6,665 nt of DNA from a virus. Taxonomy: Duplodnaviria > Heunggongvirae > Uroviricota > Caudoviricetes. Of the stretch, positions 160 to 6,060 are shown in pieces. The stretch is taken from positions 1 through 6,665 of the IMG/VR virus record IMGVR_UViG_2737471869_000001; one strand, 5' to 3'. Each line of letters starts with the position of its first letter. Position 1 is the stretch's first letter. Both the position numbers and the translations under genes were made by a program. Under the pieces are notes generated by a model, which saw nothing but the letters and a program-made list of their open reading frames with translations, did not search any database and was not told the origin of the DNA.

Positions 160-2040
160 TTAATACTCCGTCACGTTTTCCTGTCGCCACGCCTCGTCAT
201 ATTCCGATTTCGGCATATTGGCGATGTAGCTATATGGCGATCCTGATTCAAGTTGCAGGAACTGGTGCGATTGCTCGTCAAGGAACAACGGGACACCACC
301 TTCCCAACCTTCGCCGTTACGTTGTTTTTCAAGCATCAAAACAGATGCCGGAGATGCCAGTAGCTGTTCGTCCTTCTCTGACATCTTTTCACCACTCTGA
401 ACTCTCTGTAACGCTCTCTCGCGAGCCTTGTTACGCCAGATGATGAAAAGGTTGTCTGTCAGGTCTGTTATCGCTCCAGAGCCTTTTACGTCCATTTTCC
501 CGGTTGGTTTTTCTTCGCTGTCTCCTTTTCGCGAGTGAGTAACGAGAATGACGTGGGAGTTTGTTTTGTTTTTGAAGTCGCAAATCGAGTCAACAAACGC
601 CTTCTGCCCGTTATAGTCATCGTCGCCTATGCCACATTTCATCAGGCTGTCGATGATGAATAACTGGATCCCGTATCGGCGGCGAGCGTAGTCGAATATT
701 TCGATCAGCCTGTCGGCTTTCGCCGTTCCGGTCAGGCCAAACACCCAAAGTCTTTCGTCATAAAATTTAAATGCAGAGTCAATTTCCAGCACTGGCGGAA
801 TCTTGCAGCACGTCGCCTGACGGGTAAGGCGCTTAAGGAGAATACCAGGCTTCAGCTCAAGTGACGCGATGCACGTCTTCACACCCTGACGCATTGCCTC
901 AAGTGCCATATGCCCGACAACCTCCGTTTTTCCGTGACCGTTCACACCATTGACCAGCGTCAACTCTGCCTCACGGAACTGGAATTTATCTGCCAGAGAT
1001 TCCCACGGTGGATTAAACAGATACTGCTGCTTGCCGTAGAAAGCGTTGATAGTGTCCTGGTAAAACTCTCGCGCACTGTAGAGTTCTTCAGGATCGAAGT
1101 AGGATGCCGTGCCGATGTACTGCCAGATTTCATCCTCGGTAACACCGTTCATCAGGCATTCGTTGATGTCTTTGTACGGCAGAGTAACAAGACGGCAACG
1201 ATGTTCACCGAGTCGGCTTGCGATTTCCCTTGCGGCTTCACGACCAACATCATCAACGTCCATCGAGATGAATATTTCCTCAAACCTGTCGAGGTTGTGA
1301 TACTCAAACTCAATCCACTGTTGCTTAGCGCCTTTTCCTCCACCAAACGGCACGGATAACGCCGAGATGCCGTATTGCGCATAGCTCATACAATCAATTT
1401 CGCCTTCGCAAAGCACAACCGCCCTCACGCCAGCGTCCAGAGCCTGCCATCCGAACAGACAAGGTTCACAATCACCTTCTGCCATAATGACTTTCTTCCC
1501 GTCCGGGCGCTCAGTGCTGATTCGCTTGACCTGCAACAACTCACCATCGCGTTTGTACGGAATCACCAGAGCATCCAGTTCCCGCTCTCCATTCCACACC
1601 TTGCCGCTGACAACCTCGTAGCGCTTTACGATTTCTGGCGATATGCCACGCGATTGCAGGTACTCAAGATGGGATTCTGTTCTGGTAACGTAGCGGGCGA
1701 TTTTCTTGCGATCAGGTCTGGAGAATTTTTTCTCACGTTTGGCATCGAAATGGTGATCGTCATCCTTGATACCGAGGAATGCTTTCGCTTCCTGCATAGC
1801 CTGATGCAGGTTAATTCCACGACATGCCATCCACAAATCAAGCATGTCACCGCCGTCTCCCTCAGCGAAATCAGCCCATTTTTTCTTGCCGCTAAGATTG
1901 ACCTTAAGGCTGTTTCCCTTGTCACCGTTGACGTTACCGGCAACCCACTCATGCCCCTCTTTCTTGCCGTTTGGCAACAGGTGCGGAGCCACCCTGTCAA
2001 CCTGCGCCCAAAGCAGGTCGCTGAGTTCACTTGGCCTCAT
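160..2040 (-). CDS. Replicative primase-helicase fusion (Toprim primase domain + SF4 DnaB/T7 gp4-like helicase domain), 626 aa
   Basis: Uninterrupted 626-codon ORF; ATG at 2040 preceded by GAGGGA. Toprim signatures: acidic Glu motif in LCEGEIDCMSY and DxD in SMDVDDVG. Helicase signatures: Walker A GVNGHGKT, Walker B LFIIDSLM. The N-terminal 100 residues lack a Cys4 zinc ribbon. Sits immediately downstream of the O-like gene. Confidence 0.9.
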   Translation of the reverse strand: MRPSELSDLLWAQVDRVAPHLLPNGKKEGHEWVAGNVNGDKGNSLKVNLSGKKKWADFAEGDGGDMLDLWMACRGINLHQAMQEAKAFLGIKDDDHHFDAKREKKFSRPDRKKIARYVTRTESHLEYLQSRGISPEIVKRYEVVSGKVWNGERELDALVIPYKRDGELLQVKRISTERPDGKKVIMAEGDCEPCLFGWQALDAGVRAVVLCEGEIDCMSYAQYGISALSVPFGGGKGAKQQWIEFEYHNLDRFEEIFISMDVDDVGREAAREIASRLGEHRCRLVTLPYKDINECLMNGVTEDEIWQYIGTASYFDPEELYSAREFYQDTINAFYGKQQYLFNPPWESLADKFQFREAELTLVNGVNGHGKTEVVGHMALEAMRQGVKTCIASLELKPGILLKRLTRQATCCKIPPVLEIDSAFKFYDERLWVFGLTGTAKADRLIEIFDYARRRYGIQLFIIDSLMKCGIGDDDYNGQKAFVDSICDFKNKTNSHVILVTHSRKGDSEEKPTGKMDVKGSGAITDLTDNLFIIWRNKARERALQRVQSGEKMSEKDEQLLASPASVLMLEKQRNGEGWEGGVPLFLDEQSHQFLQLESGSPYSYIANMPKSEYDEAWRQENVTEY

Positions 2041-2147: not shown

Positions 2148-3008
2148 TCACCTGTCGAAAAACACGTAGCCAGTTTTCGATACGGTGATTGCGGATGATG
2201 GTTTGGATTGTGGTTGAATAGTTTCTGGCTTCTCGTCGTTCCAGCGTTGACCGTTCAGGTAGCTCGATGGTAACAACCTGTCGAATCCGAACTGCTTACC
2301 ATTCCTGCATGCGATGTCTTCTGCCAGCATCGTGGCAAACTCGCTTGCCGTACCCCTTGTAGTTTTACGCCATTCCCTGAACTGTGTTCTGAATGCCGAA
2401 GCCGCGTTTTTCTTCCCGTCTTTCCGCATGCCTGCACACCAGAATATTTCCTCGAATGCCTTGTCGGTTTCTTCGTGACGGTCAGATGATTTTTCACACT
2501 CCGTCCGAACACTTTCGGACATAGTGTTTTTATTATTTCTTTTTTCTTTTGTAATAGTTTCTTTTGTGTGTCCCTGTTTTGGTGACAGCGCTGTCACCGT
2601 TTTGGTGACACTTTTTGTCACCAATGCAGTGACATTATCACCAGAGTAGTGACACCCTTCGATTTGCCATTCTTCGATGTTCTTGTTAGGACCGATTTGC
2701 TGGCCTTCGCGAAGGATAACCTTCATCGCGATAAGCTCATTCTTGGCCTTGTTTACCTTCTGTCTTGGCAGCCTGGTAATTTGAGCTAACTGACTATCAT
2801 AGATGCGATCCATCTTTTTACCGTAGCCGTATGTTTTACGGCATATGGCGTGGGCAACCTTGCTCTGATTTTTCGTTAAATCTGCGCCGATAAGCTCTTC
2901 ATACAGGGCATTTGCAAGACGGGTATAACCATCTTCAACTTCTGCCACACGACGCTCCACAGGCCGTTGTGAAGGCCTTAAATGTGTTACGGTTGCAAGA
3001 TTACTCAT
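2148..3008 (-). CDS. O: Lambda O-like replication initiator (replisome organiser), 286 aa
   Basis: ATG at 3008 with AAGGAG 7 nt upstream. The N-terminal domain ([57 protein letters not shown]...GPNKNIEEW) resembles the lambda O iteron-binding domain as remembered. Origin-type iterons lie inside the gene. The C-terminal half is unlike lambda O, consistent with a different helicase partner. Confidence 0.9.
2521..2657. repeat. Origin of replication inside the O-like gene: dyad iterons plus flanking AT-rich tract
   Basis: Iteron 1 GGTGACAGCGCTGTCACC (2581-2598, perfect 18-bp palindrome). Iteron 2 GGTGACACTTTTTGTCACC (2604-2622). Degenerate copies AGTGACATTATCACC (2628-2642) and AGTGACACC (2648-2656). 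Spacing about 22-23 bp. An AT-rich tract (2521-2575) lies on the side that is downstream in O coding sense, the same arrangement as lambda ori. Confidence 0.75.
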
Positions 3009-3147
3009 GACCTTTCTCCTTCTGCATCAGCTTCACTTTTTCCAACTCAGCCCGGAATCGACCAGGCTGCTTGAAGCTGGACAGGAAGCGATCACGTAGT
3101 ATGTGTTTGTGAATTTTGTCCTGGTAAGGACTGAGTGGTTTTGTCAT
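3001..3147 (-). CDS. Hypothetical small basic protein, 48 aa ([48 protein letters not shown])
   Basis: ATG at 3147 overlaps the stop of the upstream 134-aa gene (TAATG). Strong GAGGAGG Shine-Dalgarno 4-5 nt upstream. Its stop overlaps the O start region (ATGAGTAA). Below the ORF-track length cutoff; supported only by coupling geometry. Confidence 0.35.
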
Positions 3148-3551
3148 TAAGCCTCCTCTACTTCGTAATCAGCGAAGTAACCAGTAGACATTTTTAAAAA
3201 CCTTGATTCGGTGACTGTGTAAGCCTTCCTTCCTTTCCTCTCCTTGCCTTCAGGCTCTATGAGGTGGCACGAATAAATGATTCTGCGCTGCCAGTTGCCT
3301 GGCATTTCCACCACTGCCAGAACCTCAAGAATTCTCTTTCCTTCAGCATCAGCGGTGTAAAAACACTGATCACCATAACCACAATCGGCTGGCTCATAAT
3401 TTTTGTGACAACCGCCAATCCAGCGCTCATCGGTATGCACGTTGCCGTCATAAGACTGATAATCTGTGCATACGAAGATAAATGGATATACGGTTTCGAA
3501 CTTGTCACCGGCCTTTATGCCGGTGTTTACTTGCTTGGTTTGTCCTGGCAT
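3147..3551 (-). CDS. Hypothetical protein, 134 aa, Cys/His-containing, unknown function (accessory gene between cII and O)
   Basis: The track ORF 3147..3758 overlaps cII. The internal ATG at 3551 is preceded by AGGAG 5 nt upstream and lies 35 nt after the cII stop, so the likely product starts [26 protein letters not shown]... It contains several spaced Cys/His (CTDYQ...H...[18 protein letters not shown]...SCH). No family recognised. Confidence 0.7.
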
Positions 3552-3585
3552 AATTACTCCTGTTACTTGGCGTAACACAGTGTGC

Positions 3586-3864
3586 TTAAGCGTCCAGACT
3601 GCTACCAACAGCTGGGCGTTTTTCTTTTGTGAGAATCGATGCCACCTGCTGAGCAAGTCTCGCCAACTCCTCGTCTTCAACACCCCATTCCAGCACAGCC
3701 AGAAGCATGGCCATCTTTGGGATAAAGCTGTCTTTCCATCGCGAAATTTGCGATTCATTAATCCCTAACGCGTCGGCAACCTTTCGCTGACCACGTACAG
3801 CAATTCGATTCAGGATGTTGCTTGTAATTGCATTCGCTTTCTTGCGAGTACTTGTAAGTTGCAT
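3586..3864 (-). CDS. cII: CII-like lysogeny transcriptional activator, 92 aa
   Basis: Core GINESQISRWKDSFIPKMAMLLAVLEWGVEDEELARLAQQVASILTKEKRPA resembles lambda CII (SQISRWK...IPKFSMLLAVLEWGV). Start placed at ATG 3864 with AAGGAAA Shine-Dalgarno, because the longer track ORF (to 3951) would contain the nutR boxB hairpin. Confidence 0.9.
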   Translation of the reverse strand: MQLTSTRKKANAITSNILNRIAVRGQRKVADALGINESQISRWKDSFIPKMAMLLAVLEWGVEDEELARLAQQVASILTKEKRPAVGSSLDA

Positions 3865-3875
3865 ATGTAAGTATT
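3842..3875 (+). promoter_or_regulatory. PRE-like CII-dependent promoter region (antisense to the cII start)
   Basis: TTGC-N6-TTGT at 3842-3855 plus a further TTGC at 3859-3862, on the strand pointing towards cI and overlapping the cII start codon. Position and motif type resemble the lambda PRE TTGC-N6-TTGC CII site. No transcript data. Confidence 0.4.
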
Positions 3876-3922
3876 TCCTTAACAAATAAGAAGTTATGCG
3901 CATCAAATTATGCGCGTTGTAT

Positions 3923-3966
3923 TCCCGCATTTCGGCGGGAATGATGACCATGACTGTTAAAGAGCG
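3923..3966 (-). promoter_or_regulatory. nutR antitermination site (boxA + boxB)
   Basis: On the minus strand: boxA CGCTCTTTAACA (complement of 3955-3966), directly after the cro stop. Then boxB hairpin TCCCGC-CGAAAT-GCGGGA (complement of 3923-3940). The identical 18-nt hairpin recurs at nutL. Confidence 0.75.
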
Positions 3967-3973
3967 GTGTTAC

Positions 3974-4198
3974 TTATGCTGCCTGATTCGGTTTTGGAAA
4001 CAGGTGTGGCAAATCGGGGCGAATTTCGTAAGCCTTGATCTGCCCTCCAGTGGCGTTAACGATGGCGGTAACTTTCTCTGGAGAGACCAACCCGCCTTTC
4101 AGCCATTTGTGTACTGCTGGCTGCGTTACACCACACTTGTCGGCAAGGCGCTTTTGGCTACCGACAATTTTCAAGGCTCGTTGAATTACTAAATTCAT
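3974..4198 (-). CDS. cro: Cro-like small HTH repressor, 74 aa
   Basis: First gene after the divergent operator region, opposite the cI-like gene. HTH-like segment QKRLADKCGVTQPAVHKWLKG. Start chosen at ATG 4198 (AAGAGG 7 nt upstream) rather than the track start 4219, which lacks a Shine-Dalgarno. Confidence 0.8.
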   Translation of the reverse strand: MNLVIQRALKIVGSQKRLADKCGVTQPAVHKWLKGGLVSPEKVTAIVNATGGQIKAYEIRPDLPHLFPKPNQAA

Positions 4199-4231
4199 GA
4201 GCATACCTCTTGTGGTCATTAGTTATAACCA

Positions 4232-4260
4232 AAGATAACCCAAGTTATAAAAAATAGCAA
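4232..4260 (-). promoter_or_regulatory. PR-like promoter driving cro-cII-replication operon
   Basis: Minus strand -35 TTGCTA (complement of 4255-4260), 17-bp spacer, -10 TATCTT (complement of 4232-4237). Operator copies overlap both hexamers. Confidence 0.55.
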
Positions 4261-4297
4261 TAACCTTTGTTATTTTACTTTGGATAACCGTAGTTAT
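4235..4297. promoter_or_regulatory. Tripartite OR-like operator: three 14-bp dyad sites
   Basis: ATAACCCAAGTTAT (4235-4248), ATAACCTTTGTTAT (4260-4273), ATAACCGTAGTTAT (4284-4297). Centres are 24-25 bp apart, between the divergent cro and cI genes. Confidence 0.75.
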
Positions 4298-4302
4298 AGA
4301 TT
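4274..4302 (+). promoter_or_regulatory. PRM-like promoter producing leaderless cI mRNA
   Basis: -35 TTTACT (4274-4279), 17-bp spacer, -10 TAGATT (4297-4302), the same hexamer I remember for lambda PRM. The predicted start is 7-8 nt downstream, at the cI ATG (4310), which has no Shine-Dalgarno. Confidence 0.55.
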
Positions 4303-5057: not shown

Positions 5058-5354
5058 ATGGAATTTCTGATAGTTTTTGTTGTTGTTTTGGTCATCATTC
5101 TTTTTGTTTTGCTAAGCATTAGCAAAAAGCTATCTCAAATGATTGAACATAGCTCTAATCGCGCAAAAGAAGAAGAGCATCTAATTGATATAAAAGAGAT
5201 TCTCTCTGATATAAAAATCACATTAGATGAAATAAAATATACAACAGATCTAATTGAACAGTATAAAATACCAACCCCAAACGAGAGAAAAGCAATAGAT
5301 CAATATCGTATTGACTTAGAAATCGACGAAATGCTAAGCAATAGAAAGGACTAA
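5058..5354 (+). CDS. Small single-pass membrane protein, 98 aa, AT-rich moron in the rexAB-equivalent slot
   Basis: ATG 5058 with GGAGG 4 nt upstream, 40 nt after the cI stop with no intervening terminator. N-terminal hydrophobic helix EFLIVFVVVLVIILFVLLSI followed by a charged Ile/Glu/Lys/Asp-rich, probably helical tail. Markedly lower G+C than the flanking genes (by eye). Followed by an intrinsic terminator. Confidence 0.8.
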   Translation: MEFLIVFVVVLVIILFVLLSISKKLSQMIEHSSNRAKEEEHLIDIKEILSDIKITLDEIKYTTDLIEQYKIPTPNERKAIDQYRIDLEIDEMLSNRKD

Positions 5355-5787: not shown

Positions 5788-6060
5788 ATGACAGTAGTCA
5801 TTACATATCTGGCTGACGATAACACCAGAAATCGCCGCAGAGCACGCAGACAGGCTCAACGTGAACAGGCAATGCAAGAGCAGCGACTGGCACGAAAAAT
5901 TGCGCTAAAGCTCTCTGGTTGCGTCAGAGCAGATAAAGCAGCATCACTCGGAAGCCTTTGCTGCAAGGAAGAAGATGAACGCAGTGGAAGTATTTGCCTG
6001 CCAAACGTAGCCATTTACGCGGCAGGATACCGGAAATCAAAACAACTGACAGCGAGGTAA
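5788..6060 (+). CDS. N: N-like transcription antiterminator with arginine-rich motif, 90 aa
   Basis: GGAGG 5 nt upstream of ATG 5788. Arginine-rich motif NTRNRRRARRQAQREQ near the N-terminus. First gene after PL/nutL. The C-terminus AIYAAGYRKSKQLTAR resembles the P22 gene 24 product as I remember it. Confidence 0.85.
   Translation: MTVVITYLADDNTRNRRRARRQAQREQAMQEQRLARKIALKLSGCVRADKAASLGSLCCKEEDERSGSICLPNVAIYAAGYRKSKQLTAR

Follow-up and report, generated by a model that had tools for sequence, protein, structure and literature searches.

In lambdoid phages, the gene order downstream of cII has been described as cII-oop-orf-O-P, and the orf48 gene of P22 is naturally absent from lambda (Hayes et al. 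2012, PMC3349717). The layout of the promoter pO and the genetics of lambda oop are described in the same work. OOP RNA has been detected experimentally at the same position in the P22-like prophage BTP1 (PMC7067206). The initial annotation of the DNA analyzed here had noted that lambda has no gene in the cII-O interval and had raised the question of whether the interval is a variable site; it is indeed variable among lambdoid phages, in agreement with Hayes et al.

In the window (the whole 6,665-nucleotide stretch of DNA analyzed here, from a P22-like prophage), the distance from cII, which ends at 3586, to the O-like initiator is 577 bp, and every gene of the interval, namely, cII, a 134-aa ORF, a 48-aa ORF, and the initiator, is encoded on the minus strand (Table 1). 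Two overlapping ORFs in an interval of about 580 bp, a TAATG overlap, a GAGGAGG motif, and a 48-aa ORF whose stop overlaps the O start had all been noted in the initial annotation, and each was confirmed in the sequence. TAATG combines the stop codon of the 134-aa ORF with the start codon of the 48-aa ORF, and GAGGAGG lies within the final codons of the 134-aa ORF (E-E-A). The second junction, ATGAGTAA, contains both the TAA of the 48-aa ORF (3001-3003) and the ATG of the initiator (3006-3008), which gives an overlap of 8 nt, and the Shine-Dalgarno sequence of the initiator falls within the 48-aa ORF. The longest ORF of the cII-like gene reaches 3951, and the equivalent of the PGAP start is 3864. 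Given the gene order, both genes of the interval would be transcribed from PR following N-dependent read-through of tR1.

Table 1. Features of the cII-initiator interval and its two flanking genes (positions in the window)
Feature	Position	Strand	Basis or sequence
O-like replication initiator, downstream neighbor	2148-3008	-	Pfam Phage_rep_O, E=4e-37; PHROG replication initiation O-like
Junction DUF2740/initiator	3001-3021	-	AAGGAG (3016-3021), 7-nt spacer, ATGAGTAA (3001-3008)
48-aa ORF	3001-3147	-	ORF call; Pfam DUF2740
Junction 134-aa ORF/DUF2740	3145-3158	-	GAGGAGG (3152-3158), CT, TAATG (3145-3149)
134-aa ORF	3147-3551	-	ORF call; ATG with AGGAG ahead
Antisense oop-type promoter (pO-like)	3526-3554	+	TTTACT, 17 nt, TG-n-CATAAT
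Predicted oop-like antisense RNA, about 68 nt	3561-3628	+	Fold prediction
cII-like activator gene, upstream neighbor	3586-3864	-	Pfam Phage_CII, E=2e-42; PGAP annotation

We estimate a probability of roughly 75% that the interval consists of two separate genes, which have become neighbors only via mosaic shuffling, together with an antisense RNA promoter, and that it contains no two-part module. Both ORFs are coding and under purifying selection, as judged from dN/dS values in the annotated frame of 0.43 (48 aa) and 0.30 (134 aa), compared with 1.0 to 1.26 in the two shifted frames.

A profile search of both proteins, as the initial annotation had proposed, assigned the 48-aa protein to DUF2740 (PF10872) and the 134-aa protein to PHROG 30464. 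The 48-aa gene is DUF2740/orf48, a regular component of P22-like phages and many lambdoid phages. Its match to PF10872 is strong (E=9e-29; 99.4 bits, the curated gathering threshold being 27), with residues 6 to 48 aligned to the full profile (positions 1 to 43 of 43). The copy in Escherichia coli MS 115-1 is named DUF2740 family protein by PGAP, and HK620 hkaW, P22 orf48, and HK022 gp53 belong to the same family. Homologues were found in Escherichia, Salmonella, Citrobacter, Klebsiella, and Pluralibacter. The protein is basic (pI of about 10.3, net charge of about +6) and was modeled by AF2 as a two-helix hairpin (helices at residues 7 to 23 and 28 to 44, pLDDT 80). PHROG 1913, which contains DUF2740, is labeled "tail protein," but the gene is always located in the replication region and the label was rejected as a mislabel. 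In Silas et al. 2023, the name "orf48" follows the numbering of that screen and stands for gnarl1, which modifies the O antigen and comes from lytic phages; the sequences of the 134-aa and 48-aa proteins are absent from the supplements of that study. A literature search for DUF2740 found no mention of it.

The last codons of DUF2740 hold the Shine-Dalgarno sequence of the initiator, and the 8-nt overlap with the next gene, with the sequence ATGAGTAA, was present at all 171 of 171 DUF2740 loci, ahead of three different initiator types or clusters. With a junction fixed in this way, ribosomes that finish DUF2740 would be handed to the initiator start, so that translation of the two genes may be coupled. 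The most likely role of DUF2740 is thus that of a coupled gene upstream of the initiator. Conservation of its central residues suggests that the peptide may well also assist the replication module as a small accessory protein.

The two genes are distributed independently of each other. Among 5426 complete E. coli genomes, the cII-DUF2740-O region was matched in 519, and the 134-aa gene was covered in only 2; a sensitive blastn search with the gene alone returned the same 2. DUF2740 occurred without the 134-aa gene at 161 of 172 DUF2740 loci and in about 517 of the 519 E. coli genomes. The remaining 11 of the 172 loci had the 134-aa gene upstream, the upstream gene being cII or cII-like elsewhere. 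Conversely, a recognizable DUF2740 was directly downstream at 7 of 80 134-aa loci; the figure of 11 was counted over an enlarged locus set.

These distributions bear directly on the proposal of the initial annotation that the two ORFs form a two-component unit, for example, a toxin-antitoxin pair or a small regulator with its partner, that was inserted into the early operon as a whole. Tight stop/start overlaps and a strong Shine-Dalgarno sequence are indeed present, a complex between an acidic (about -5) and a basic (about +6) partner is physically conceivable, and a few prophages that are nearly identical (L001, L007-L011) carry the pair in the same form. However, the genes are distributed independently (2 versus 519 of the 5426 E. 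coli genomes), HK639 and Hafnia phage Meifeng carry cII, the 134-aa gene, and the initiator in this order with no DUF2740, and the stop/start overlaps are generic to the operon. Across the 80 loci, the 134-aa gene overlaps whichever gene comes next, by -1, -4, or -8. Neither protein matched a toxin, antitoxin, or defense family in Pfam, NCBIfam, or PADLOC, and PDB sequence and fold searches returned no match to a toxin, an antitoxin, or a DNA-binding antitoxin domain. A promoter scan of 2900-4300 detected no sense-strand site from which the pair could be expressed on its own, which weighs little as the scan was of low sensitivity and also missed PR itself. The two-component proposal was therefore abandoned as very improbable. 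A different objection to two separate genes is that DUF2740 may not be a functional protein at all, its translation serving as a leader for the initiator and its conservation reflecting overlapping DNA and RNA signals only. The 5' end of DUF2740 overlaps the pO region in phages where the gene directly follows cII, its final four codons (K-G-H-E) coincide with the spacer and ATG that follow the initiator Shine-Dalgarno sequence, the -8 overlap is invariant, and prophage maintenance does not require P22 orf48 (bioRxiv 10.1101/2023.08.15.553423). Because the conserved N- and C-terminal residues overlap the pO region and the ribosome-binding site of the initiator, part of the conservation is not at the protein level. 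In contrast, the invariant residues are mostly central, away from these signals (H13, K14, I16, R18, D19, R20, L22, F25, and 27-37), the in-frame dN/dS of 0.43 is well below the off-frame values of about 1.0 to 1.17, and the helical hairpin is modeled with confidence. A purely leader function thus appears improbable, and we retain the reading of two separate genes, of which DUF2740 encodes a protein.

The third element of the interval, a predicted antisense oop-type RNA with a promoter that overlaps the 5' end of the 134-aa gene, was absent from the initial annotation. The pO-like promoter was the only promoter-like site found in the scan of 2900-4300. Its -10 box shares bases with the start codon (ATG) of the 134-aa ORF, and codons 7 to 9 (Q-V-N), read as the reverse complement, form its -35 box. 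Among the 134-aa loci, the promoter was present at 39, of which 38 had the QVN motif at the N terminus, and absent at 39, of which 38 lacked it. At DUF2740 loci, TGnCATAAT was found at 157 of 172. The RNA is predicted to fold into a 5' hairpin (GTTAC...GTAAC) and a GC-rich terminator hairpin followed by a U-run; it extends across the 3' end of cII (stop codon at 3586-3588), and the terminator ends near 3628. Of 57 distinct homologous regions, 56 have a terminator hairpin of at least 6 bp abutting the T-run, and the stem arms occur in 24 different sequences. No match for the RNA was obtained when the whole window was scanned against Rfam at E<=1. The placement of the promoter where the ORF next to cII begins, the antisense course into the 3' end of cII, and the intrinsic terminator within cII all correspond to an oop-type unit. 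The first ten codons of the 134-aa ORF, as the sequence indicates, supply the -35 box of this promoter, and the cassette would therefore keep cII under oop control.

The 134-aa gene itself is a rare, self-contained cassette that occupies different slots of the early operon in different temperate phages. About 45 of 80 sampled loci follow cII, ahead of three initiator types, and these copies span at least three cII types. At about 34 loci, of a Klebsiella type, the gene comes later, in a nin-like region behind the replication genes, and has neither the pO promoter nor the N-terminal extension. Distant members adjoin ERF/YqaJ and integrase genes or are located amid runs of small early genes. In the phage studied here, the cassette fits precisely into the junction of the cII-oop unit and DUF2740.

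The 134-aa protein is WP_001119433 in E. coli MS 115-1, where it is an annotated CDS, and is 91% identical to gp53 of Escherichia phage HK639 (YP_004934083), which is the subject of none of the papers listed in a literature search. It matches PHROG 30464 over its full length (residues 1 to 134 of 134, E=2.7e-95), which is also the sole PHROG matched by distant family members. An exhaustive search with the family profile gave 187 clusters at 50% identity, and Pfam holds no family for the protein. Family members are acidic (median pI of about 5), and the AF2 model of the 134-aa protein has seven strands and one helix (pLDDT 84.5). The protein thus belongs to an acidic, unannotated family with a predicted all-beta structure. 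No solved structural relative was found, with only one insignificant match in a profile search of PDB sequences. The fold may be either a strongly diverged small beta-barrel of the SH3/Tudor-like kind or a new one. A Pfam scan of ten N-terminally extended members found no informative fusion.

The 134-aa protein most likely acts alone, as an early binding protein after infection or induction, with no fixed partner gene. We tentatively suggest, at somewhat short of even odds, that its target is a component of the host or of a competing phage, in an accessory function of the counter-defense or host-takeover type. The evidence for this suggestion consists of a sporadic and mobile gene in the early region and a fold resembling that of binding proteins. 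More than half of the sampled copies are located exactly at the cII-initiator junction, which could instead mean a position-linked role in replication or in the lysis-lysogeny decision.

Such a position-linked role, in which the protein modulates replication initiation or the cII/oop switch, would fit the 45 or so copies placed between cII and the initiator across several types of both genes, and the pO -35 box in the N-terminal codons of these copies indicates long residence at the site. Nevertheless, it is unlikely, since the nin-like copies do without the promoter and the extension, distant members have recombination and integrase genes as neighbors, the 80 loci show no specific tie of the gene to any one initiator or cII type, and the gene is missing from nearly every phage that has this set of cII, DUF2740, and O genes. 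Binding of single-stranded DNA or RNA through a PC4- or OB-fold-like structure was also considered. Foldseek searches with the model matched PC4 and SSB-type proteins only weakly and without significance (E of 0.1 to 1), a phage SSB was also matched weakly, and one family member (P0073) is fused to DUF3850/ASCH, labeled RNA-binding by PHROGs; even so, nucleic-acid binding would come as a surprise. The initial annotation had pointed to spaced Cys/His residues and a possible metal site. The residues are indeed present (C28, C48, H49, C57, C62, C95, and H96), and among close relatives C48 is the sole invariant Cys/His and C95 is nearly invariant. The site, however, is not conserved: across 63 diverse family members, only P23, G47, G71, and R90 are invariant and none of the Cys/His columns is conserved. 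With no match to a zinc-finger or other metal-site family and no catalytic or metal-binding signature in the protein, a metal-binding function is scarcely credible. A free-standing accessory protein therefore remains the preferred reading of the 134-aa gene. It is a doubtful though real possibility that the family, which comprises no fewer than 187 clusters at 50% identity, represents both an undescribed fold and a new counter-defense or host-takeover factor; in the post-cII subfamily, the N-terminal extension would then have been shaped by having to encode the oop promoter as well, the two being dual-coded.

This analysis removes a tempting but wrong toxin-antitoxin annotation, and a stop/start overlap in a tightly packed phage operon is no evidence of a functional pair. 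It also ties the 48-aa gene to the long-known orf48/DUF2740, for which translational coupling to the initiator is a testable role. The 134-aa family is a moderately large group of phage early proteins with no Pfam entry or structure, and it is a reasonable candidate for accessory-gene screens. In addition, the oop promoter must be supplied by the gene next to cII, whatever that gene is, and this limits the exchange of cassettes at this site.

Compared with known systems, the 48-aa ORF resembles P22 orf48, HK620 hkaW, and HK022 gp53 (PF10872) in length, in its position between cII/oop and the initiator, and in the 8-nt overlap. It differs from this family in that DUF2740 does not directly follow cII, the 134-aa gene being inserted upstream, and the start of DUF2740 lacks the pO -10 box (CATTAA, not CATAAT). 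The closest relative of the 134-aa gene, HK639 gp53, likewise directly follows a cII-oop unit (there with an "M3-like RNA") and overlaps the next gene. In HK639, however, the next gene is another type of initiator, DUF2740 is absent, and cII is of a different, 181-aa type. The antisense unit is similar to lambda oop/pO in running antisense to the 3' end of cII from a promoter that lies across the beginning of the gene next to cII, and the RNA, predicted here from the sequence, shares the short length, two hairpins, and intrinsic terminator of lambda oop RNA; the -35 box, in contrast, lies in the 134-aa ORF, not in O or orf48, and the RNA sequence differs. Type II toxin-antitoxin modules also consist of two small adjacent genes with a stop/start overlap, but the two genes of this interval show no obligate co-occurrence, no toxin or antitoxin homology, and no DNA-binding antitoxin domain. 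The 134-aa gene has several features of nin-region accessory genes and "morons": it occurs sporadically, is mobile between phages, has edges that coincide exactly with gene junctions, and is not needed by most relatives. A classic moron brings along a promoter and a terminator and is expressed in the prophage. The 134-aa gene, unlike these, forms part of the PR operon; the low-sensitivity scan showed no promoter or terminator of its own on the sense strand, and the gene overlaps its neighbor at the stop codon.

The two ORFs reported between cII and the O-like initiator gene in the initial annotation were confirmed in the window, which represents the immunity/replication region of a P22-like prophage and is ~99% identical to the E. 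coli MS 115-1 prophage adjoining ybhC. They fill most of a 577-bp gap in the early-right operon. Both ORFs and the signals at their junctions stood, but the proposed two-component system (e.g., toxin-antitoxin) and metal site were not supported. Instead, each ORF is a mosaic unit of its own, independent of the other, with exchange taking place at gene boundaries.

Coordinates of features in the window and in related loci
Feature	Coordinates	Strand	Position
cro-like gene	3974-4219	-	first in early-right operon
cII	3586-3864 (PGAP annotation); longest ORF to 3951	-	after cro-like gene
134-aa ORF	3147-3551	-	after cII
48-aa ORF	3001-3147	-	after 134-aa ORF
O-like initiator	2148-3008	-	after 48-aa ORF
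Toprim/DnaB-type primase-helicase	160-2040	-	after O-like initiator
Predicted oop-type promoter and RNA (about 68 nt)	3526-3628	+	across 134-aa ORF start and cII 3' end
98-aa ORF	5058-5354	+	directly downstream of cI, same strand
N-like antiterminator ORF	5788-6060	+	
MS 115-1 counterpart of N-like ORF	L001 22889-23160		
54-aa ORF, Yersinia-type loci	L075 5393-5557; L076 5393-5557; L080 5384-5548		between 134-aa gene and next gene
Fused distant member (P0073) of 134-aa family	L247 6001-6843		between ERF/YqaJ recombination genes and integrase

The primase-helicase (626 aa, Toprim plus DnaB-like, PHROG 239) is not a lambda P-type helicase loader; thus, this phage combines an O-type initiator with a helicase-primase of its own. 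The N-like ORF is intact (90 aa; Pfam N_peptide, E=2e-14), and PGAP flags its MS 115-1 counterpart as a frameshifted pseudogene. The 98-aa ORF, which has an N-terminal hydrophobic helix and PHROG 18389 (unknown function) as its sole match, occupies the position taken by rexAB in lambda and by hkaS in HK620, and is a candidate for an exclusion or defence gene expressed in the lysogen.

Profile and structure searches had been suggested for both proteins. The 48-aa ORF matches Pfam DUF2740 over its full length (E=9e-29) and is related to P22 orf48 and to HK620 hkaW, the latter carrying an annotation of similarity to HK022 gp53. The common lambdoid layout is cII-oop-orf-O-P; P22 orf48 is located between oop and gene 18 and is naturally absent from lambda (Hayes et al. 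2012, PMC3349717). The cII-DUF2740-O region had matches in 519/5426 complete E. coli genomes and in 94 phage records, and 377 IMG/VR contigs encoded a relative. Conservation of the small ORF, which had been left for comparison with relatives, was found at the protein level across five enterobacterial genera, with a dN/dS of 0.43 in frame versus 1.0-1.17 off frame. In the predicted structure, helices 7-23 and 28-44 form a hairpin (AlphaFold pLDDT 80), and the family is basic (pI ~10.3). The invariant residues fall mainly in the central part, which suggests that the hairpin also acts as a protein within the replication module. No function for DUF2740 was found in the published literature, and P22 orf48 is dispensable for prophage maintenance (bioRxiv 10.1101/2023.08.15.553423). 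The PHROG 1913 label "tail protein," which has passed into RefSeq phage records NC_019706, NC_027398, NC_028696, NC_008464, and NC_019708, looks wrong, since the gene is always in the replication region.

The 134-aa ORF had no match in Pfam, NCBIfam, or PADLOC, and its sole profile match was PHROG 30464, of unknown function. It was present in just 2/5426 E. coli genomes, even with sensitive blastn. In relatives lacking it, the same 34-bp spacer lies between cII and DUF2740, so the additional DNA amounts to exactly one gene. Close homologues, with 51-100% identity, were found in HK639 (gp53), Hafnia phage Meifeng, Klebsiella phages, and 76 IMG/VR contigs. The wider family, whose members almost all have a single domain and a length of 115-140 aa, comprised 187 clusters at 50% identity by exhaustive profile search (274 by word-indexed profile search). 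The gene evolves as a protein-coding sequence would (dN/dS of 0.30 in frame versus 1.1-1.26 off frame), and it is a rare, mobile accessory gene.

The junctions were as initially described: the window sequence reads GAGGAGG-CT-TAATG between the 134-aa and 48-aa ORFs and AAGGAG-N7-ATGAGTAA between the 48-aa ORF and the initiator. Stop/start overlaps of this kind are a general property of this compact operon and no sign of a two-component system. In addition, the ORFs occur independently, and across relatives the interval between cII and the initiator holds DUF2740, the 134-aa gene, both, or the 134-aa gene with a 54-aa ORF, depending on the phage. Among the roughly 45 loci in which the 134-aa gene is adjacent to cII, DUF2740 follows it in 7 and the unrelated 54-aa ORF in 3; HK639 and Meifeng lack a small ORF altogether. 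The DUF2740 stop overlaps the ATG of the next gene by exactly 8 nt in 171/171 loci with a downstream gene present (172 loci in the set), the downstream genes belong to three different initiator clusters, and the initiator Shine-Dalgarno sits within the last DUF2740 codons. Given this invariant overlap and the placement of the Shine-Dalgarno, translational coupling to the initiator is the best-supported candidate mechanism. In the Yersinia-type relatives, the 54-aa ORF (MMRKKTNAKQREV...KANE) fills the DUF2740 slot and may be its analogue; its start overlaps the 134-aa gene stop by 4 nt, and the next gene is O-like in L076 and unclassified by the reference set in L075 and L080. A 10-nt string, CCAGGACAAA (coding strand), is shared by codons 2-4 of the 134-aa ORF (3539-3548) and codons 8-11 of DUF2740 (3115-3124), and may reflect chance (about 0.06 expected) or cassette-joining recombination.

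The AlphaFold model of the 134-aa protein is confident (pLDDT 84.5), with about 10 disordered N-terminal residues, seven strands, and one C-terminal helix; Foldseek found no PDB match at E<=0.001 and a single unnamed viral model in BFVD. Across 63 diverse members, P23, G47, G71, and R90 are invariant and conservation extends to none of the Cys or His positions, so the proposed metal site is not supported. The family is acidic (median pI 5.1-5.3). One distant member, P0073, found in a prophage, carries a fused DUF3850/ASCH (PUA-like) domain at its N terminus, labeled RNA-binding in PHROGs; ten other extended members carried no further recognisable domain. The order cII, 134-aa gene, initiator was seen in about 45/80 loci, with initiators of three unrelated types. 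About 34/80 copies, of Klebsiella type, lie in the nin-like variable region downstream of the replication genes, and seven of seven distant members examined belong to phages or prophages, where their neighbours are either series of small, overlapping early genes or, on the two sides, ERF/YqaJ recombination genes and the integrase. The family thus has neither a fixed locus nor a fixed partner. Sporadic spread, mobility among early slots, lack of a catalytic or metal signature, acidic charge, and a small-barrel-like fold lead us to favor a stand-alone binding protein, which would act in a host- or competitor-directed accessory role; a function linked to the junction of cII and the initiator is a credible rival. 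While DUF2740 was already known as a family, the 134-aa gene adds a new member to the many uncharacterised accessory genes of phage early regions.

An antisense oop-type promoter was overlooked in the initial annotation. TTTACT-17-TGnCATAAT at 3526-3554 (+) is the only promoter-like site found within 2900-4300. Its -10 box holds the reverse complement of the 134-aa ORF ATG, and its -35 box is that of codons 7-9 (CAA GTA AAC, Q-V-N). In the cII-adjacent subfamily, the N-terminal extension coincides with the -35 box: across 78 loci, promoter and QVN extension were almost perfectly correlated, the motif being present in 38/39 copies with the promoter across the start and absent in 38/39 copies without it. 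Where DUF2740 directly follows cII, TGnCATAAT lies on its start instead (157/172 loci); where the 134-aa gene precedes it, the DUF2740 start reads CATTAA. Thus, the first gene after cII carries the oop promoter. The predicted transcript, from ~3561, would form one hairpin at its 5' end and a second, GC-rich terminator hairpin whose U-run ends near 3628, and would be antisense to the last cII codons. In 56/57 distinct versions of the region, a hairpin of 6 bp or more still abuts the T-run, even though 24 different stem-arm sequences are used. OOP RNA was seen by RNA-seq at the same position in the P22-like prophage BTP1 (PMC7067206), and the predicted arrangement is the same as that of oop RNA and its promoter pO in lambda (PMC3349717).
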